Part shown: piece after piece, positions 1,112 through 9,975 of the stretch
How positions within the stretch are numbered: position 1 is the first letter of the stretch
How the letters are laid out: every line of letters begins with the position of its first letter
UHGV virus genome: UHGV-0122175
From: a virus
Length of the DNA stretch: 35,613 nucleotides
Direction: 5' to 3' (one strand)
Position numbers and translations under genes: made by a program
The notes under the pieces: generated by a model
What the model was told of the DNA's origin: nothing
The model's database searches: none
The model's input: the letters and a program-made list of their open reading frames with translations, nothing else

Positions 1112-1453
1112 TCAGCCAACATTGCGGCCTGATCGGGGTGATTTTTGGGTAATACCGATTGAAACCTGATCGCCCTCCGACTGAATAGAGCCATCAAGAG
1201 AGAGAGCCGGAGCAACCTGCCCGGCAGCGGGAAATGTTTTGTCGTGAAGTATCCACATAGTGTATTTTTCGAATCGCTCGACTTGGATTACTTTTTCTAC
1301 AACCTCAATGCGCGCAGGTTTATATCCAGACTCATAATTTCCTATAGTCCCTACAGAAACCCCCGTTACTTGCGAAAACTGAGATTGTGTAAGTTTTTCC
1401 GCATTTCTGATCGCCTTTAGTTTTTTGGCGTAATCTCTTGACATGTTCACCAT
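1112..1453 (-). CDS. C: Immunity repressor, P2 C-type (HTH)
   Basis: 113-aa ORF with a helix-turn-helix (LTQSQFSQVTGVSVGTIGNYESG). The tail (FEKYTMWILHDK...GQVAPAL) resembles P2 C as I recall it. It is divergent from the Cox-like gene. The true start may be the internal Met at codon 4. Confidence 0.75.
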   Translation of the reverse strand: MVNMSRDYAKKLKAIRNAEKLTQSQFSQVTGVSVGTIGNYESGYKPARIEVVEKVIQVERFEKYTMWILHDKTFPAAGQVAPALSLDGSIQSEGDQVSIGITQKSPRSGRNVG

Positions 1454-4377: not shown

Positions 4378-4581
4378 ATGGCAATTAAGCATTTTCCCGT
4401 CGTTCGCTTTACCTCCAGAGGACGCGAATACGAGGTCGACGAACGCCTGATTACCACTATCGACAAACACCGTTCAGAAAAGGATGCACATCACATCTAT
4501 CTCACTGACGGCACTTACTTCTGCGCCACGAATGTGGTGCGGGTGAACCTTATCCGACAGGCACAGGAGTCACGCAGATGA
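4378..4581 (+). CDS. Hypothetical early-region protein
   Basis: ATG at 4378 (MAIKHFPVVRF...) with AGAGAG upstream. Its stop overlaps the start of the next gene (ATGA). Confidence 0.5.
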   Translation: MAIKHFPVVRFTSRGREYEVDERLITTIDKHRSEKDAHHIYLTDGTYFCATNVVRVNLIRQAQESRR

Positions 4582-4823
4582 CCATTCTGGACTACATCGC
4601 TGCCAATCCGGGTTGTAGCGGTGGAGAAATCGCCGCAGCACTGAATACCCCAACCACAGCCATTAATGCGGAGTTACGCCGACTCTGGCGCGGCGGCTTA
4701 GTCATCAGAGAAGAACGCAAAACAGGCGGTCGGTTCTCTTACCAGGTAAACCCGATGCCGTTCGGGTGTGGCAACCCACTTACTCACATGTTTAACCAGC
4801 TACTGAAGGAAGCCAGAGCATGA
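4578..4823 (+). CDS. Putative winged-helix DNA-binding protein
   Basis: 81 aa, MTILDYIAANPGCSGGEIAAALNTPTTAINAELRRLWRGGLVIRE, a pattern typical of small winged-helix regulators. Translationally coupled to its neighbours. Confidence 0.5.
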   Translation: MTILDYIAANPGCSGGEIAAALNTPTTAINAELRRLWRGGLVIREERKTGGRFSYQVNPMPFGCGNPLTHMFNQLLKEARA

Positions 4824-5119
4824 GCACCATCAACCACCAGGAACTACGCGAACTGGCGACTGACCTGCAACGAATGGCAACGCATCAAAAATTACTGGCG
4901 TTTCGCGCAATGCTCTCGCCGTCTGCTGTGCTGGCACTGCTGGATGAGCTGGAGCACGCCAGAACCATGGCTCCAGCCATTCGCCTGACGCTCCATCATG
5001 AAATCGCTGATTTCTGCGCGACGTTGGAGGCGCCGGGCGAACCGGAAACGCCGGAAGCAATACAGCAAGAGCTGCTGCAACGCATTGACAAGGTTTTTGA
5101 TTTTTTTCTGAACCAGTAA
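4820..5119 (+). CDS. Hypothetical early-region protein
   Basis: 99-aa ORF, start overlaps the upstream stop. Predicted helical. Confidence 0.55.
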   Translation: MSTINHQELRELATDLQRMATHQKLLAFRAMLSPSAVLALLDELEHARTMAPAIRLTLHHEIADFCATLEAPGEPETPEAIQQELLQRIDKVFDFFLNQ

Positions 5120-5140
5120 GAAACCAGAACATGCACACAC

Positions 5141-5441
5141 AAAAAAACCGCTTGCCATGCCGCAATCAGTCAGGTTACATTTCCGCTGCACCTCATAAAA
5201 CGGGTGCCGGGATTCTCAACCCGATACAGAGCAAAGCGCATAACCGCGCAAGCGGTTTTTTTGTGCGTACCGTATTGCCACGTCTTTTTCGCGTCAGAAT
5301 TATGGCGGGGCGTACGGGGCCGACTTCGGTCGGGCCGGATTCTTTGCTCTCCGGTGTTGAGAACCCTGTACGTCTCGCCACCCCGAGATTCTCAACTCTG
5401 GATGGTGAGTTATTTCTATCACCGAGCAAAGAGGCCACACC
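5141..5441. other. Structured non-coding region (candidate ncRNA or regulatory element)
   Basis: About 300 bp without a convincing ORF. It holds a 15-bp long-range inverted repeat (5141..5155 vs 5248..5262), an imperfect 28-nt inverted repeat (5208..5236 vs 5342..5366), a CCGAC-TTCG-GTCGG hairpin and three copies of GATTCTCAAC. Confidence 0.35.
5242..5262 (+). terminator. Candidate intrinsic terminator
   Basis: AACCGC-gcaa-GCGGTT stem followed by a run of seven T. It lies downstream of the 4820..5119 gene. Confidence 0.4.
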
Positions 5442-5672
5442 ATGGCAAACCGCAAACAGCACCGCGCATACGCTGCGCGTCGTCACATCCAGACTGAAAT
5501 CAACCGCAGACTTTTCCGCGCATTCCGCGTCGCGCAAATCATGCACATCAATATGCTGCATGAGCGCAGTCACGCACTATCGAACAGCTATTCCGCCTCT
5601 GTTTTCAGCTATCTGGCGGATGATCTGCGCGAGCTTCAGCAGCTCATCCAGCAGCAAAACAAACTCCATTAA
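5442..5672 (+). CDS. Hypothetical basic protein
   Basis: 76 aa, AAAGAGG ribosome-binding site, Arg-rich N-terminus (MANRKQHRAYAARRHIQTEINRR). Confidence 0.5.
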   Translation: MANRKQHRAYAARRHIQTEINRRLFRAFRVAQIMHINMLHERSHALSNSYSASVFSYLADDLRELQQLIQQQNKLH

Positions 5673-5744
5673 TTACTGTTCCGGGCCTTTCCTGCACCTT
5701 GCGGCGGGAGGCCTTCGCACATCTGTAACAAGAGGATTGCCGCA

Positions 5745-6110
5745 ATGATTCTCGCCAACGACTTTCTTGAATACCTGCTCAACACAGAACGTGATCTTGC
5801 CGCTCGCGTGCGTGATCGTTATGACATGTACCTGAAATCCCTGCCTGTACCGCAGCTCGCTGACGGAAAGATTGTTATTGATGGTCGCTACATGATTGAC
5901 AGCCATGAGGGAAATTACAGGCTTTACCGCATTGAAGGTGGCACCCCGTACGTTATTGGCATTTACCAGCGCCCATCCTCTGCAATCGTCGATGTGATTG
6001 CCGACAGCATCCGCATCACACATCGCCATGCCGACACAGAAGACACCGTGCTGGAAATTCAGCGGCTGGCTACAGTCTGCCGCGACACCCTGAATGGCAT
6101 GACGAAGTAA
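5745..6110 (+). CDS. Hypothetical protein upstream of A
   Basis: 121-aa ORF with AAGAGGA ribosome-binding site, immediately upstream of the replication gene. Confidence 0.6.
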   Translation: MILANDFLEYLLNTERDLAARVRDRYDMYLKSLPVPQLADGKIVIDGRYMIDSHEGNYRLYRIEGGTPYVIGIYQRPSSAIVDVIADSIRITHRHADTEDTVLEIQRLATVCRDTLNGMTK

Positions 6111-6116
6111 ATCACT

Positions 6117-8939
6117 ATGACGGCAGAGTACATCAGGGACTGGCAGCAACCGCGCCACGCAGTGGGGCGTGAAGGAACGGGGATCCCCGCTCCTGAATCC
6201 GCGCTTTCCTCCTGGCTGGATGCCTACCGGGTAGAGAACGAACGCCGCCAGGAAATGGCTGATGCGGCGTTCTCCACCACGCCGCTGGGCAACCTGATTA
6301 ATAAAAGCCTGGACGCACAGGAAAAACAGGACAAAACCATCACACTGGCAGGAGACGCCAGAAAACAGGCACGCGGCGCGGTGGATGAAGCCATGGCCTC
6401 GCTGCGCCTGCTGCCGTCCTATCTACGCGATCCGCTTATTCGCCACCTCTCCTTCCTGCGCAAAAAACAGGAAGCCGATCGCCGGAAAGGCGAAAAGAGC
6501 TGGCAGGCGGAGCGCTATGCACGCGGAACCCTGCGCAAAATATTCGAACGTCTGGATCGCACTGACGGACGCTGGCTGACACCGGGGTATCGCTCCCTTG
6601 CCGGACGCGAACACCTGGACGATTTGCTGTACCTGCCGCAGCTCAACAAACACCAGATACAGACGCTGGCCACCATGACGGCGGCGATGTTCAGCAGCAC
6701 CTTCGAAAAACTCTGCGATGGCTTTGGCGCGACTGATGGCGAACTGACCATGGATGTAACGCTGAAGGCGTATCAGATGCTGGCCCGCATGGCGTTACAC
6801 CTGCACGCCATGCCTCCACATTATGACGCACTGACAACAGACAAAGACCGGAGGAACGAACCGGACACAGAGCTGCTGCCGGGCGCAATCCTTCGCCTGA
6901 CCTGTGCGGAATGGTGGAAACGCAAACTGTGGCTGTTACGTTGCGAGTGGAGAGAAGAACAACTCCGCGCCGCCTGTCTGGTTTCCAGAAAAACATCGCC
7001 CTATCTGAGCCAGGACGCGTTAAGCGAGTTTCGCGCACAGCGCGAGAAAACACGCGATTTCCTGAAAAGTTTCATGCTGGAAAATGAAGACGGGTTCACG
7101 ATTGATCTTGAGACAGTGTATTACGCGGGAGTAAGTAACCCGGTTCACCGTAAGGCAGAAATGATGGCCACCATGAAGGGGCTGGAACTTCTGGCCGAAG
7201 CCCGTGGCGACAAAGCGGTGTTTCTGACTGTCACCTGCCCGTCAAAATACCACGCCACAACAGAGAACGGTCATCCGAATCCCAAATGGAACGGGGCCAC
7301 CATGCGCGACTCCAGCGATTACCTGGTTAACACGTTTTTTGCGGCGGTCCGCAAGAAACTGAACCGCGACGGCCTGCGCTGGTATGGCATCCGCACGGTG
7401 GAGCCTCACCATGACGGCACCGTGCACTGGCATATGATGGTCTTTGCTCATCCGGAAGAAATCGACACCATTGTGTCCCACACCCGCGATATTGCCATTC
7501 AGGAAGATCGTCACGAGCTGGGCGATGATATTACTCCGCGCTTTAAGGCGGAGTATGTCGACGGCTCAAAAGGCACGCCAACCAGCTACATCGCCACCTA
7601 CATCGGAAAAAACCTGGACAGCCGCGCCGTGGATGGCATCGACCCGAAAACGGGCAAGCCACGCGTTGACCACGAAACCGGAAAATCAATGGCCGAGAGC
7701 GTGGAGCGCGCCATCGGCTGGGCGCGCCTTCACCGGGTCCGCCAGTTCCAGTTCTTTGGCATCCCCTCCCGTCAGGTGTGGCGTGAACTGCGCCGCCTTG
7801 CCAGCCAGATGGCACGCAACCCGGAAGGCCCGCAACGGCTGAAGGATGACGCAATGGATGCAGTGCTCGCTGCCGCTGATGCCGGGTGTTTTGCCTCCTA
7901 CATTGAAAAACAGGGCGGCGTACTTGTTCCACGCAAAGACTACCTGATTCGCACCGCCTACGACCTCGCAGATGAGCTGAACGATTACGGCGAACAGAGC
8001 GTACAGATTTACGGGATCTGGTCACCACTCATCGGGGAGTCTTCCCGTGTGTGCACACATCCGGATAACTGGAAGCTGGTAAGACGTAAACCGGAAGCGG
8101 AAGACAGCGCCCGCGAAAATGGTTTTGACCTTCAGGGCGGCCCTGCCGCCCCTTGGACTCGTGGCAATAACTGTCCCCGTGTACAGGAAACGGACAACAA
8201 CGGGACAGAACAGCCGGAAGAACGGCCAGCACCGTGGCCGCAGCTCCCTGACGGCGTTGAAGTGAACGAATGGATGCGCTCACTGAAACGGCACGAACGC
8301 CGGGCGCTGATGCGTTCGCTTCGTGACAAACAGGCAAAAAACAGCCGTGATGAAATGCAGAGCTGGACACAGAGCCGCAAACAGCAGCGGCCTTTGCCTG
8401 ATAACCACGAACTACTCGCTAAAGAATGGCGGGAGTCTGCTGAATCTCTCGGCCTGCATATCGGTGAACAGCAGATGCAGCACCTGTTACGGGGCGGCAG
8501 TCTGTACGTTGACGGCAGCAACATTGCACCGCAGGGATTTGAAATTGTACGCAAACCGGATACCCGACCGGACAGCCGGATCACGCAGCTCTGGCAGCGC
8601 CTGAGCCGTAACCACGGCGTAAGCAGTACGGAGATCCGCCATAACCCGGTCGCCAGCTATCTGGAACAGCTGGGGACATCAGACCCCGAAGCCGCCGCAC
8701 GCCTGGCATCCACACTTCAGCAAGACCAGAACACCATGAAAACACCCGTTACCGTGCTTTCTGACATGCTGCGCGCCATCCGCGACGCAGAGCACGCACA
8801 GAGAATCAGTGAAACCACTGAACGCGCCCGCCGCAAAGCAGACCTGCTGCGGGGTGGCCTGACCAGTGGAAACAAAAAACAGACAGAAACGGGATTCACA
8901 AATCCCGTAAATGAGCAAAAAACGCGCCGCGATATATGA
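6117..8939 (+). CDS. A: Replication initiation protein A (rolling-circle, HUH-type nickase)
   Basis: 940-aa ORF at the end of the early operon. Contains a His-hydrophobic-His motif (TVHWHMMVFAH) and a paired-tyrosine motif (YIATYIGKN) characteristic of phiX174/P2 A-type initiators. Confidence 0.85.
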   Translation: MTAEYIRDWQQPRHAVGREGTGIPAPESALSSWLDAYRVENERRQEMADAAFSTTPLGNLINKSLDAQEKQDKTITLAGDARKQARGAVDEAMASLRLLPSYLRDPLIRHLSFLRKKQEADRRKGEKSWQAERYARGTLRKIFERLDRTDGRWLTPGYRSLAGREHLDDLLYLPQLNKHQIQTLATMTAAMFSSTFEKLCDGFGATDGELTMDVTLKAYQMLARMALHLHAMPPHYDALTTDKDRRNEPDTELLPGAILRLTCAEWWKRKLWLLRCEWREEQLRAACLVSRKTSPYLSQDALSEFRAQREKTRDFLKSFMLENEDGFTIDLETVYYAGVSNPVHRKAEMMATMKGLELLAEARGDKAVFLTVTCPSKYHATTENGHPNPKWNGATMRDSSDYLVNTFFAAVRKKLNRDGLRWYGIRTVEPHHDGTVHWHMMVFAHPEEIDTIVSHTRDIAIQEDRHELGDDITPRFKAEYVDGSKGTPTSYIATYIGKNLDSRAVDGIDPKTGKPRVDHETGKSMAESVERAIGWARLHRVRQFQFFGIPSRQVWRELRRLASQMARNPEGPQRLKDDAMDAVLAAADAGCFASYIEKQGGVLVPRKDYLIRTAYDLADELNDYGEQSVQIYGIWSPLIGESSRVCTHPDNWKLVRRKPEAEDSARENGFDLQGGPAAPWTRGNNCPRVQETDNNGTEQPEERPAPWPQLPDGVEVNEWMRSLKRHERRALMRSLRDKQAKNSRDEMQSWTQSRKQQRPLPDNHELLAKEWRESAESLGLHIGEQQMQHLLRGGSLYVDGSNIAPQGFEIVRKPDTRPDSRITQLWQRLSRNHGVSSTEIRHNPVASYLEQLGTSDPEAAARLASTLQQDQNTMKTPVTVLSDMLRAIRDAEHAQRISETTERARRKADLLRGGLTSGNKKQTETGFTNPVNEQKTRRDI
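8889..8908. repeat. 20-bp palindrome ACGGGATT-n4-AATCCCGT (copy 1, inside the 3' end of A)
   Basis: Perfect 8-bp inverted arms, read directly from the sequence. Confidence 0.6.
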
Positions 8940-9015: not shown

Positions 9016-9975
9016 ATGAAAATTTGTATCGATGACGGCTCCACCAACATCAAGCTGGCATGGACTGAGAACGGCGAACGCCGCAACGCCATCAGCCCAA
9101 ACAGCTTCAAGTCGGAATGGTCTGCGCCGTTCGGTGGCACGCAGCCCGCGAACTACATGCTTGATGGCGTGCGCTATGGTTTTGATCCGGTCAGCGATCG
9201 CTTTGTCCAGACGACCGACACGCAATACCAGTACAGCGATGTGAATGTCATTGCCATTCATCACGCGCTGGTCAAATCAGGCATCACACCACAGGAAGTG
9301 GATGTGGTTGTCACCCTGCCACTGAGCGAATATTTCGACACAAACGCACAGCCGGACATGGCCAACATCAACCGCAAAAAAGCGAACGTTATGCGCCCGG
9401 TGGAGTACCAGAACGGCGAAGCATTCACTATCCGTAACGTGCGGGTTATGCCTGAATCCATTCCGGCTGGCTTTAAGGCACTGGCTGACATGAGTCCGTT
9501 TGAATCCCTGCTGATTGTGGATTTGGGCGGAACCACGCTGGATGTGGCAAAGGTTCAGGGGCAACTGGCAGGTATCAGCCAGGTGTTTTGCGATCCACAC
9601 GTAGGCGTTTCTCTGATGGCCGATGCCGTACTGTCGGTGATGGCCACTAACGGTATGCGCACCAGTCACCACATCGCCAATACCATTATCGAACATCGCC
9701 ATGATGAAGCCTGGTTGCGCCAGCACATCCACAATGACGCGCATTACGCCAGCCTGATGGCGGTTATTCGTGAAAAGGAAGAAACACTGAAACAACGAGT
9801 GATCCGCGCGCTGGCGGGGTTTTCGGGTTACGGGCGGGTGATGGTTGTCGGTGGCGGGGCGGAGATTGTGGCACCCGCTATCCGCGAAGCCTGCGGAGTT
9901 AATGCGACTTTCATCGCGGACGGGGTGCCACAGTTTGCTCTGGTTAATGGGCTGTACGCAATGGACAAGGAGTAA
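9016..9975 (+). CDS. parM: Actin-like segregation ATPase, ParM/StbA family
   Basis: 319 aa. N-terminus MKICIDDGSTNIKLAW closely matches the plasmid R1 ParM N-terminus as I recall it (MLVFIDDGSTNIKLQW). Also has the actin-fold phosphate motif IVDLGGTTLD and C-terminal VMVVGGGAE. Strong AAGGAA ribosome-binding site. Confidence 0.8.
   Translation: MKICIDDGSTNIKLAWTENGERRNAISPNSFKSEWSAPFGGTQPANYMLDGVRYGFDPVSDRFVQTTDTQYQYSDVNVIAIHHALVKSGITPQEVDVVVTLPLSEYFDTNAQPDMANINRKKANVMRPVEYQNGEAFTIRNVRVMPESIPAGFKALADMSPFESLLIVDLGGTTLDVAKVQGQLAGISQVFCDPHVGVSLMADAVLSVMATNGMRTSHHIANTIIEHRHDEAWLRQHIHNDAHYASLMAVIREKEETLKQRVIRALAGFSGYGRVMVVGGGAEIVAPAIREACGVNATFIADGVPQFALVNGLYAMDKE

Follow-up and report, generated by a model that had tools for sequence, protein, structure and literature searches.

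A probable IsrK/C4-type RNA switch ahead of an epsilon-like gene in a P88/Sp13-type P2-like prophage

The gap at positions 5141-5441 of the window, i.e. the whole 35,613-nt stretch of DNA that was analysed, is very probably an RNA-based secondary-immunity ("anti-immunity") switch, in which an IsrK-type leader and a C4/CI-type antisense RNA guard a small antirepressor gene. In all likelihood it is the same type of switch as immI of P1/P7 (c4-icd-ant), PLE-seqA-cI-seqC of P4, cA-ant of N15 and isrK-orf45/STnc1160-anrP of Gifsy-1. The whole window is a P88/Sp13-type P2-like prophage, and the function assigned to the module in such phages is drawn wholly from homology. We judge the gap to be real and functional, yet ordinary: elements of this kind are already known and no new principle is involved.

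Results

Repeats and RNA folds exceed chance

The preliminary description held that the gap contains far more structure than a terminator needs. This is correct, the terminator being confined to 5242-5262. Compared with 1000 dinucleotide-preserving shuffles of 5141-5441, inverted and direct repeats were far above chance. Nine perfect 9-mer inverted pairs were observed against 0.2 expected, a number reached in 0/1000 shuffles; the longest perfect inverted repeat measured 15 nt (shuffle mean 7.5, shuffle maximum 13), and the 10-mer direct repeat had a p value of ~0.025. The RNA folds are likewise stable beyond composition, with z-scores of −3.1 (5188-5262), −4.9 (5298-5385) and −6.2 (5130-5270).

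Each of the features listed in that description is present, with small corrections. The 15-bp inverted repeat with arms about 90 bp apart extends to 21 nt at 95% complementarity and has a perfect core of 15 nt. The imperfect 28-nt inverted repeat corresponds to 5210-5236 (GGATTCTCAAC...AGAGCAAAG) and 5342-5366 (CTTTGCTCT...GTTGAGAACCC), and the UUCG tetraloop hairpin to 5320-5333 (CCGAC-UUCG-GUCGG). Two of the three reported copies of GATTCTCAAC are exact and direct (5211-5220 and 5387-5396), whereas the third is inverted and agrees in 9/10 bases (GTTGAGAAC, 5356-5364). Of the terminators proposed for both strands, the plus-strand one is clear (hairpin 5242-5257, T7 at 5256-5262), whereas the minus-strand candidates are weak consensus matches. 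Both the GATTCTCAAC copies and the imperfect 28-nt repeat correspond to recognition sites within the IsrK/C4 system.

Two RNAs of curated families

The small RNA suspected earlier resolves into two, both on the plus strand and each assigned to a curated Rfam family; contrary to the earlier statement, the region can thus be assigned to known families. The elements of the gap are as follows.

5135-5155 and 5248-5268: long inverted repeat, core AAAAAAACCGCTTGC / GCAAGCGGTTTTTTT, 92 nt between the arms
5135-5155, plus strand: left arm of this repeat, ACACACAAAAAAACCGCTTGC, complementary to the 3′ half of the terminator, its U7 run and 6 further nt
5152-5157 and 5176-5181, plus strand: promoter-like site PisrK with sigma-70-type sequence signals, −35 TTGCCA, 18-nt spacer, −10 TACATT
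5188-5262, plus strand: IsrK-type leader RNA composed of hairpin 1, hairpin 2 with site b1, a linker with site a1 and an intrinsic terminator
5242-5262, plus strand: IsrK intrinsic terminator, AACCGC-GCAA-GCGGTT followed by T7 at 5256-5262
5298-5385, plus strand: C4/CI-type antisense RNA with a 17-bp closing stem, hairpin 1 with the UUCG loop (5320-5333) and hairpin 2 (5334-5355)

The leader matches the isrK family (RF01394) over its full length, model positions 1-77 of 77, with 63.1 bits against a gathering score of 50, and its minimum free energy is −24.2 kcal/mol. As sequence signals, a promoter-like site lies directly upstream, its −10 hexamer ending 6 nt before the IsrK 5′ end, and an intrinsic terminator closes the 3′ end. 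The spacing between the promoter hexamers and the IsrK 5′ end is the same in 16/16 modules, those of P4 and Gifsy-1 included. In Gifsy-1, the equivalent of PisrK was shown to drive the operon (PMC4825925), and IsrK is known to bind Hfq and to be partially read through into a long mRNA (PMC2330248, PMC4825925). The counterparts of the leader are the a1-b1 leader of P1 and the seqA region of P4. Both the isrK and the c4-a1b1 (RF03163) models match the same leader in P1 and Gifsy-1; no match to c4-a1b1 was reported in the window. A second promoter-like site at 5275-5303 was not adopted because its −35 is not conserved in relatives and its −10 is explained as the conserved 5′ flank of C4.

The second RNA matches the C4 family (RF01695) with 78.5 bits against a gathering score of 45 (positions 1-87 of 87, E 6e-14). 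Its minimum free energy structure is the Rfam consensus (−47.6 kcal/mol), and 0/200 shuffles fold as well. A hallmark of the C4 family is release by RNase P from a longer precursor of the same strand, in a tRNA-like 3′ ...CCA context. A conserved AAUUAU/GG 5′ junction and a 3′ end GCCACC (5377-5382) line up with the mature c4 annotated in P1, from which we predict a mature C4 RNA of ~79 nt at 5304-5382, ending ...GCCACC. In Gifsy-1 the C4 counterpart STnc1160 (= orf45) is a stable species dependent on PisrK (PMC4825925). A tRNA/tmRNA scan of the window found none.

Three sets of complementary sites

Two short sequences occur once in the leader and once on the mRNA ahead of the cargo gene, and their complements lie in the C4 RNA.

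5213-5220, plus strand: site b1, TTCTCAAC, loop of IsrK hairpin 2, complementary to b′
5228-5236, plus strand: site a1, AGAGCAAAG, IsrK linker, complementary to a′
5341-5350, plus strand: site a′, TCTTTGCTCT, in C4 hairpin 2 (loop plus 3′ shoulder), partner of a1 and a2
5356-5363, plus strand: site b′, GTTGAGAA, single-stranded junction of C4, pairs with b1 and b2
5389-5396, plus strand: site b2, TTCTCAAC on the mRNA, 4 nt past the end of the C4 model
5424-5434, plus strand: site a2, GAGCAAAGA (5424-5432), overlapping the Shine-Dalgarno sequence AAGAGG (5429-5434) of the ATG at 5442

The loop of C4 hairpin 2 and the 3′ junction are thus complementary to a2 and b2 downstream, with a2 on the ribosome-binding site of the cargo gene, and to the second copy of both sites in the upstream leader; a′ pairs with a2 through 5341-5349. 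All 15 modules compared first share this arrangement: each has a site pair in its leader and another downstream to which the loop and junction of C4 are complementary, and in each a GAGG directly adjoins the downstream a-site. No additional composite b-a targets were found elsewhere in the window.

A scan of genome contigs with the cargo protein returned 3 loci only, too few for covariation, and IMG/VR scans contributed 138 further loci. Covariation across homologous regions, a check recommended in the preliminary description, was analysed in 51 distinct P88-like modules (alignment A2), with slid partner columns as control. For the upstream pairing (b1/a1 with a′/b′), 96.3% of cells were paired compared to 27-56% in the controls, 11/17 pairs changed on both sides, and the covariation score was 0.678 versus 0.05-0.17. 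The downstream pairing (a2/b2 with a′/b′) behaved alike, with 95.3% of cells paired, 10/17 pairs changing on both sides and a score of 0.651. Hence, the three site sets change together across these relatives, i.e. the repeats covary as base pairs. In Gifsy-1 the pairs G28-C162 and G31-C159, which map onto b1:b′, were validated by compensatory mutation (PMC4825925).

Among 143 loci we distinguished 24 a′/b′ combinations, made up of 15 a types and 6 b types; P88, for instance, carries the a specificity CAACTACAG and the b specificity TTTCCAC. The predicted duplex energy was −22.6 kcal/mol with the own target and −12.8 kcal/mol with other targets, and the own target was the best one for 18/19 specificity types. 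Co-resident prophages were considered as a test of heteroimmunity: specificity differs in 6/7 same-genome pairs, a comparison that is uninformative because ~90% of pairs would differ by chance.

Cargo gene, repressor and neighbours

The module forms part of the early operon and precedes the essential gene A, so that early transcripts would have to pass the IsrK terminator. The genes of interest are listed below.

1112-1453, minus strand: P2 C-type immunity repressor (113 aa), HTH_3, homologous to P2 C
5442-5672, plus strand: cargo gene of 76 aa, P4 epsilon "derepression protein" family (PF25738, BLASTP, PHROG)
5745-6110, plus strand: co-oriented ORF of unknown function, phrog_3237
6117-8939, plus strand: co-oriented P2 gene A-type replication endonuclease

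The cargo protein scores 28 bits against PF25738, just above the cutoff of 27, and shares 31% identity over 51 aa with P4 epsilon (BLASTP E 2e-7), with which it also has reciprocal PHROG matches. Its variable sites are in excess at the third codon position. By this homology it is presumed to be an antirepressor. The repressor is homologous to P2 C over its full length (34% identity, E 1e-21) and would be the target of the epsilon-like protein. The ORF at 5745-6110 showed no homology to P4 orf151 (E 0.13). No LexA box that could account for SOS inducibility was found near the module, and the sole CTGT-N8-ACAG core lies inside gene A.

Discussion

A model for the switch

We propose that transcription starts at about 5188 from the sigma-70 promoter at 5152-5181 and that most transcripts end at the 5262 terminator, yielding a 75-nt IsrK-type RNA that displays b1 and a1. 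Read-through transcripts would carry the C4-type RNA (5298-5385), from which RNase P may, by homology, excise a stable RNA of ~79 nt. Through its hairpin-2 loop (a′) and 3′ junction (b′), C4 would then base-pair with a2 and b2 on the mRNA just downstream. As a2 covers the Shine-Dalgarno sequence of 5442-5672, this interaction should block translation of the P4-epsilon-like antirepressor. By analogy with P1 and P4, it may also promote premature, Rho-dependent loss of the downstream message including gene A; if the switch also controls transcription in this way, the genes at 5745-8939 could be subject to polarity. The leader sites b1 and a1 would compete for the same C4 sites, either in cis or as free short RNA. 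Thus, the balance between IsrK and C4 is proposed to set production of the antirepressor and inactivation of the P2 C-type repressor, presumably in response to an inducing signal. The a and b sequences would serve as a code of specificity: phages that are otherwise nearly identical differ in them, and each C4 is thus expected to silence its own type only.

Alternative mechanisms

A different main mechanism, which is compatible with this model but which we regard as doubtful, follows the activator logic of Gifsy-1. According to it, the read-through mRNA locks itself by pairing of b1/a1 with a′/b′ in cis, and free IsrK binds a′/b′ in trans and opens the ribosome-binding site; the C4-shaped segment would be part of the mRNA leader or a short translated ORF from the conserved AUG at 5302 rather than a separate trans-acting repressor. 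In Gifsy-1, IsrK supplied in trans raised anrP translation more than 100-fold, the cis mutations G28A and G31A derepressed anrP, and translation of orf45 was required (PMC4825925). The authors of that study invoke a structural switch in cis that is opened by IsrK in trans, and co-expressed STnc1160 did not counteract IsrK (PMC4825925), so that a repressor role of the processed C4-type RNA is presumptive for IsrK-type modules. The first AUG of orf45 (+107) corresponds to the AUGG conserved at the 5′ end of C4, the same AUG is found here at 5302-5304, and the pairing of b1/a1 with a′/b′ covaries. However, the ORF that opens at AUG 5302 in the window, instead of ending close to the start of the cargo gene, crosses that gene in another frame as far as 5748, and indel variants (L018, L019, L022 and L074) break this frame while retaining all pairings. 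Moreover, the a2/b2 pairing covaries equally strongly, which is expected for a repressor RNA but is not required by a pure cis-lock. Genetics has defined the processed RNA as the repressor in P1, P4 and N15, and the N15 record labels cA "secondary immunity repressor".

It is conceivable, though not likely, that the main role is P4-type immunity, with the C4/CI-like RNA chiefly causing premature termination that keeps gene A silent in the lysogen and control of the epsilon-like gene being secondary. The Rfam C4 and isrK models match the cI RNA and the seqA leader of P4, whose controlled operon holds epsilon and the replication gene alpha. In the window, the epsilon-like gene, one ORF and gene A follow each other co-oriented with short gaps, and the plus strand of 5262-5800 is free of terminator-like sites except inside C4. 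Conversely, no terminator or rut-like feature was identified downstream. In the lysogen, the C repressor already keeps the main early promoter off, so that only read-through from PisrK would need silencing, and lambdoid relatives carry the module ahead of antirepressor genes only.

The preliminary description had also offered a repeated protein-binding site. It is very improbable that a small DNA-binding protein encoded nearby uses the repeats as DNA operators (iterons), even though the three copies of each of the two motifs vary in concert between phages, as a co-evolving protein-operator pair could produce, and a gene for a winged-helix protein lies just upstream (4578-4823). The repeats occupy loops and single-stranded parts of the two RNAs as well as the ribosome-binding site, one copy lying on the Shine-Dalgarno sequence. 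The middle copies are reverse complements of the outer two, and they coincide exactly with the loop and the junction of an RNA fold that is strongly supported. The copies covary as base pairs including G-U wobbles, of which the pairing alignments hold 17 cells (e.g. PA2 a1 CAATCGAGG versus a2 CAATCAAGG); pairing tolerates such changes whereas an operator would not. Finally, lambdoid modules retain the sites without a winged-helix neighbour, and the homologous RNA pairs are proven by mutation in Gifsy-1 (PMC4825925).

Least credible of all is an "Ash family" protein encoded by the ORF 5131-5748, as labelled on ORFs here in RefSeq ("ash family protein"): the match to PF10554 (residues 16-111) reaches 20.1 bits against a cutoff of 26; 49/51 relatives keep the frame open, which is uninformative because two of the three plus-strand frames are without stops here; the ATG is missing in 11/51 relatives, 1-2-nt indels shift the frame in several, and variation is confined to the pairing sites, where it is compensatory and not codon-like. 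The "cI protein" CDS over the same DNA in P4 is a historical annotation, as P4 cI is now known to be an RNA gene and not a protein.

The left arm of the long inverted repeat

One item is left unexplained by the IsrK/C4 switch, namely the 21-nt left arm. Its A7 run (5141-5147) spans roughly −47 to −41 of PisrK, and the arm shares bases with the −35 hexamer; the right arm (5248-5268) overlaps the IsrK terminator. Read on the minus strand, the A7 run is a T7. The left arm occurs only in P2-like (P88-type) modules and is absent from lambdoid ones. A role as antiterminator was set aside as the leading reading because eight GC-rich pairs (5148-5155/5248-5255) would still form a stem abutting the U-tract. 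Covariation cannot test the pairing of this arm because both arms are nearly invariant in the 143 loci; among the variants, one shortens both the A-run and the T-run, one the T-run only, and one mutates the arm alone.

Background on induction comes from two phages. The P2-like prophage Sp13 has a P4 epsilon-like gene and is mitomycin-inducible though its repressor is without a peptidase motif (PMC2669165), and P88 was obtained through mitomycin induction (PMC5285337). Speculatively, and with a low probability of being right, both matters might be joined: the IsrK-C4 switch would make the P2-type circuit inducible despite a non-self-cleaving repressor, stress raising the IsrK decoy relative to C4 and thereby freeing the epsilon-type antirepressor and gene A. 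The left arm would pair with the terminator only in early-operon transcripts and so discriminate the promoter of origin via processing, stabilisation or altered termination. If true, this would be a regulatory layer undescribed for P1, P4, N15 and Gifsy-1.

Significance

The module is present in 1181 of 5426 complete E. coli genomes (22%), and the P88/Sp13-type family includes the P2-like prophage of O157:H7. In O157 Sakai/EDL933 the module is 98.8% identical. Our literature search found no description of this module in P2-like phages; only the epsilon-like gene of Sp13 has been reported. The assignment calls for a correction of annotation: records of P88, P4 and many E. coli genomes in RefSeq label this DNA as hypothetical or "ash family" genes in place of two RNA genes and a regulated ribosome site. 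It also places the RNA immunity code of the P1/P4 type, with at least 24 specificity combinations, before an epsilon-type antirepressor in a very common E. coli prophage family. Moreover, the switch is a testable candidate explanation of a response to mitomycin C that Sp13/P88-type P2-like prophages show and P2 does not.

Comparison with known systems

The tandem of isrK followed by C4 was found in P88, Shae_phiSM, nine lambdoid/Stx phages, a Yersinia phage, N15, P4, Gifsy-1 and P1. A likeness in logic only is seen in sar RNA/ant of P22, where a small antisense RNA blocks translation of the antirepressor (PMC12197685). The sar RNA is unrelated: it is a true cis-antisense RNA from the opposite strand, with neither same-strand processing and loop-loop recognition nor a leader decoy.

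The P1 record annotates a1, b1, c4, a2, b2 and icd in the same order as the module, and Rfam c4-a1b1 marks the P1 leader. The immI region of P1/P7 (RF01695, RF03163, icd-ant) and the window have several traits in common. Transcription starts from a constitutive promoter, and the leader holds two short sites once each. A structured RNA of ~77-80 nt is released by processing, and its hairpin loop and 3′ junction are complementary to these sites. Both sites recur just downstream, at the ribosome-binding site of the first cargo gene; the cargo antagonises the primary repressor; and heteroimmune relatives differ in their site sequences. For the window, promoter activity, processing and antagonism are presumed by homology. 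In contrast to P1, whose cargo is Icd and Ant1/2, the window carries the 76-aa P4-epsilon-like protein. Its leader ends in a strong intrinsic terminator of the IsrK type, whereas the P1 leader scores 35 bits with the isrK model and so fails to reach the gathering score. Going by the P1 labels, the two sites follow each other along the RNA in the opposite order, and the host is an integrating P2-like phage, whereas P1 is a plasmid prophage.

P4 immunity (PLE-seqA-cI(seqB)-seqC) resembles the window in that the isrK and C4 models match leader and cI RNA, the promoter register is the same, and the controlled left operon has an epsilon-family gene followed by a replication gene. The distance from leader to RNA is 107 nt in P4 but 35 nt in the window. 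Between the RNA and epsilon, P4 has about 245 nt, among them a separate first ORF; in the window, the first cargo is the epsilon-like gene itself, 57 nt downstream. In P4 the RNA switch is the primary immunity, whereas the window also has a P2 C-type repressor.

In Salmonella Gifsy-1 (isrK-orf45 (STnc1160)-anrP), the Rfam isrK, c4-a1b1 and C4 matches are arranged in the same way, a2 lies on the Shine-Dalgarno sequence of an antirepressor gene (a presumed one in the window), and the verified pairs are those of b1:b′. Its cargo is AnrP instead of an epsilon-like protein, the short orf45 frame is not conserved in the window, and the module adjoins the late antiterminator Q of a lambdoid prophage, whereas in the window it belongs to the early operon, and the phage is P2-like. 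N15 (cA RNA/antA-C), finally, differs in its a specificity, in its antirepressor genes and in phage type, being a linear plasmid prophage, but it shares the isrK and C4 matches and the very same b specificity (GTTGAGAA / TTCTCAAC) with the window.

RNA families in the early region

The gap at 5141-5441 lies in the early operon of a P2-like prophage and carries a real, functional-looking element of a textbook kind, one that routine annotation with RNA families already picks up. Along its entire length, the prophage repressor shares 34% identity with P2 C (E 1e-21). In the segment 5100-5700, identity is approximately 90% with phage P88 and further genomes of Xuanwuvirus (Peduoviridae), and 82% with Citrobacter phage Shae_phiSM. 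When the whole window was searched with Rfam at gathering thresholds, exactly two matches were obtained, both full length, on the + strand and within the gap. The preliminary description had rightly suspected a small RNA at this position but had assigned it to no known family; isrK and C4 both exceed their gathering scores. Their minimum-free-energy folds equal the Rfam consensus structures, with z values of -3.1 (isrK) and -4.9 (C4).

Features of the gap and its phage setting
50-1042, - strand: integrase
1112-1453, - strand: helix-turn-helix repressor
4820-5119: Ead/Ea22-like gene, neighbour on one side of the gap
5152-5181: promoter-like site PisrK, TTGCCA-18-TACATT, ending 6 nt upstream of the isrK 5' end
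5188-5262, + strand: isrK (RF01394), 63.1 bits, gathering score 50
5213-5220: b1, loop of isrK hairpin 2
5228-5236: a1, isrK linker
5242-5257 plus T7, + strand: intrinsic terminator
5298-5385, + strand: C4 antisense RNA (RF01695), 78.5 bits, gathering score 45
5341-5350: a', C4 hairpin-2 loop
5356-5363: b', C4 3' junction
5389-5396: b2, downstream of C4
5424-5432: a2, overlapping the Shine-Dalgarno sequence AAGAGG (5429-5434) of the ORF starting at 5442
5442-5672: 76-codon ORF, neighbour on the other side
6117-8939, + strand: P2 gene A-type replication endonuclease, last gene of a long early operon

The hexamers of PisrK are of the sigma-70 type and occur in the same register in 16/16 modules examined, P4 and Gifsy-1 among these; in Gifsy-1, the operon was shown to be driven by the isrK promoter (PMC4825925). 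Terminator hairpins had been proposed for both strands, which holds for the + strand (5242-5257), whereas the - strand candidates are weak. A second promoter-like site (TTGCCA-17-AATTAT, 5275-5303, +) lies directly 5' of C4 and is probably not a promoter because its -10 element is the conserved C4 5' flank; the -35 element reads TCGCCA in many relatives. Scanning the whole window for the LexA-box core CTGT-N8-ACAG revealed none near the RNA module, the sole match (8171-8186) being located within replication gene A. Behind this gene, a 319-codon ORF (9016-9975) corresponds in length and position to the P88 gene annotated "plasmid segregation protein ParM", which is followed by "partition protein"; neither gene is a usual accessory of an integrating P2-like phage.

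Pairing sites and their covariation

The repeat load of the gap is far above chance. Compared with 1000 dinucleotide shuffles, nine perfect 9-mer inverted pairs stand against 0.2, and the longest perfect inverted repeat measures 15 nt, whereas no shuffle exceeded 13. The repeats described previously were recovered, i.e. the inverted repeat 5135-5155/5248-5268 (21 nt, 95%, perfect core 15 nt), the imperfect composite one (5210-5236 versus 5342-5366) and the C(UUCG)G hairpin (5320-5333). Two of the three reported copies of GATTCTCAAC are direct (5211-5220 and 5387-5396), whereas the third (5356-5364) is inverted and matches at 9/10 positions. In fact, the repeats are three sets of two sites: a' and b' of C4 are complementary both to the leader pair b1/a1 and to the downstream pair b2/a2. 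In 15/15 modules first compared, C4 loop and junction match their own leader and downstream site pairs, with GAGG directly adjoining the a-site.

Two IMG/VR scans with the cargo protein (ORF 5442-5672) as query and one reference-genome scan provided 141 further P88-like loci. The 51 distinct module sequences could be aligned almost gap-free, with nearly invariant flanks and RNA scaffolds; most of the variation falls into the a and b sites. Between leader and C4, 96.3% of the cells were paired (slid controls 27-56%), 11/17 pairs had changed on both sides and the covariation score was 0.678 (slid 0.05-0.17). The corresponding values for C4 and mRNA were 95.3% (slid controls 39-48%), 10/17 and 0.651.

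Across 143 loci, 15 a types and 6 b types form 24 a'/b' combinations, the commonest being that of the window. The predicted duplex with a module's own target has a mean energy of -22.6 kcal/mol, that with other targets -12.8 kcal/mol, and the own target is the best predicted one in 18/19 types. This modelled preference is the pattern underlying P1/P7 heteroimmunity. One locus (L052 236-340, IMG/VR UViG_2582580934_000004) encodes a 105-nt form of C4 in which hairpin 2 is duplicated and the a' loops of the two copies differ, one being of the window type and the other of the GTTCTTGTGTAG type; recombination between specificities or an assembly artefact may account for it.

The left arm

The left arm of the long inverted repeat (5135-5155) is complementary to the 3' half of the isrK terminator, its U-run and 6 further nt. 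P2-like modules show 15-18 nt of perfect complementarity (0/300 shuffles), the other modules tested at most 9 nt (PhiR12_2, F004 and P4 not scored). By sequence, the arm is therefore confined to P2-like modules among those tested, which provides a modest lead. In the alignment of 51 modules it forms the invariant left border regardless of the upstream gene, and the minimum-free-energy fold of 5130-5270 places it in a long-range helix (z -6.2). As both arms are near-invariant in the 143 loci, covariation cannot decide its function. An antiterminator role is not obvious, since in the long helix the GC-rich part remains next to the U-tract. The arm could be a stem through which early-operon transcripts are processed or stabilised, a bidirectional-terminator scar or an UP element, and the position of its A7 run also suits an UP element for PisrK.

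Cargo gene and proposed mechanism

The ORF at 5442-5672 matches the Pfam "Derepression protein family" (PF25738, 28 bits, cutoff 27) and, over 51 residues, shares 31% identity with P4 epsilon (E 2e-7), with reciprocal PHROG cross-hits. Its variable sites are in excess at third codon positions (36 vs 23 and 18). The +1 frame (5443-5748, +) is also open for 101 codons, its TGA overlapping the ATG of the next ORF (ATGA 5745-5748), and is kept in all relatives checked, one with only 67% protein identity; such a frame is expected in approximately 8.6% of codon permutations, and codon-position variation favours the annotated frame. According to work cited in PMC2669165, P4 epsilon binds the P2 C repressor and thereby derepresses P2. 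A P4 epsilon-like gene was reported in Sp13, a P2-like prophage of O157 Sakai that is mitomycin-inducible though its repressor lacks a peptidase motif, the mechanism being left open (PMC2669165). P88 was likewise obtained through mitomycin induction (PMC5285337). A link between the RNA module and inducibility of P2-like prophages is a further modest lead.

The present analysis demonstrates the RNA identities, the sequence signals, the complementarity, the covariation and the homologies. We infer C4 processing, repression, polarity, antirepressor activity and an inducing signal along the following lines. PisrK would mainly produce a short IsrK-type RNA, and read-through a C4-type RNA processed, by homology, to approximately 5304-5382. 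Pairing of its a'/b' with b2/a2 would mask the ribosome site used for the epsilon-like antirepressor and probably exert polarity on downstream genes. The leader b1/a1, in cis or as free IsrK, would compete for C4 and thereby set a threshold. Two other possible readings, activation of a self-locked mRNA by IsrK as in Gifsy-1 and control of the replication gene by P4-like termination, would employ the same machinery in variant form. The repeated protein-binding site suggested previously, i.e. a DNA operator, is unlikely: pairing covaries and tolerates G-U wobbles, the middle copies are reverse complements within RNA loops, one copy lies on the Shine-Dalgarno sequence, and RNA pairing is proven in a homologue.

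A 205-codon ORF (5131-5748, +) covers both RNA genes, with a sub-threshold match to the Pfam "Ash protein family" (PF10554) exactly over the isrK-C4 DNA. ORFs at this locus are named "ash family protein" in RefSeq E. coli, and CDSs overlie the RNA genes in P88 and P4 records. A protein-coding gap is nevertheless unlikely, given the sub-threshold score, two of three frames being stop-free anyway, a start codon absent in 11/51 relatives and pairings that survive frameshifting indels; the Ash family may largely be the translation of an RNA locus.

Comparison with known systems

The isrK-C4 tandem occurs in every comparison locus (P88, Shae_phiSM, nine lambdoid/Stx phages, a Yersinia phage, N15, P4 and Gifsy-1) and in 1181/5426 complete E. 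coli genomes, with 98.8% identity in O157:H7 strains. The two RNAs are already annotated next to each other, as "isrK" and "C4 antisense RNA", in the record of one Stx2 phage. Further Rfam matches were found near the modules of phage P13374 (sRNA-Xcc1, 79.6 bits, L009 2523-2606, beside antB2/antirepressor genes) and Yersinia phage vB_YpM_39 (ryfA, 134.6 bits, L010 149-447). A P88-like module with a cargo gene of 92% protein identity to that of the window is present in NZ_JBQPOM010000071.1 (L017), labelled Vagococcus sp.; for an assembly attributed to a Gram-positive genus, contamination or a wrong label is the probable explanation.

The RNA module is absent from P2 itself. In P4, the C4 model matches the cI RNA and the isrK model the seqA leader, to which IsrK has been likened (PMC4825925). 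N15 shares the tandem, and its RNA gene cA is termed "secondary immunity repressor" in the record. Gifsy-1 is the IsrK type locus, where isrK, c4-a1b1 and C4 all score above threshold. The compensatory pairs published for this locus, G28-C162 and G31-C159 (PMC4825925), fall exactly on b1:b', and the conserved AUGG with which the 5' end of C4 is marked provides the first AUG of "orf45" (+107). STnc1160 (orf45), the C4 equivalent, is a stable RNA that needs the isrK promoter (PMC4825925). The P1 record annotates the same anatomy (promoters, a1, b1, c4, a2, b2, icd-ant), its leader scoring 51 bits with its own Rfam family, c4-a1b1 (RF03163), and 35 bits with the isrK model.
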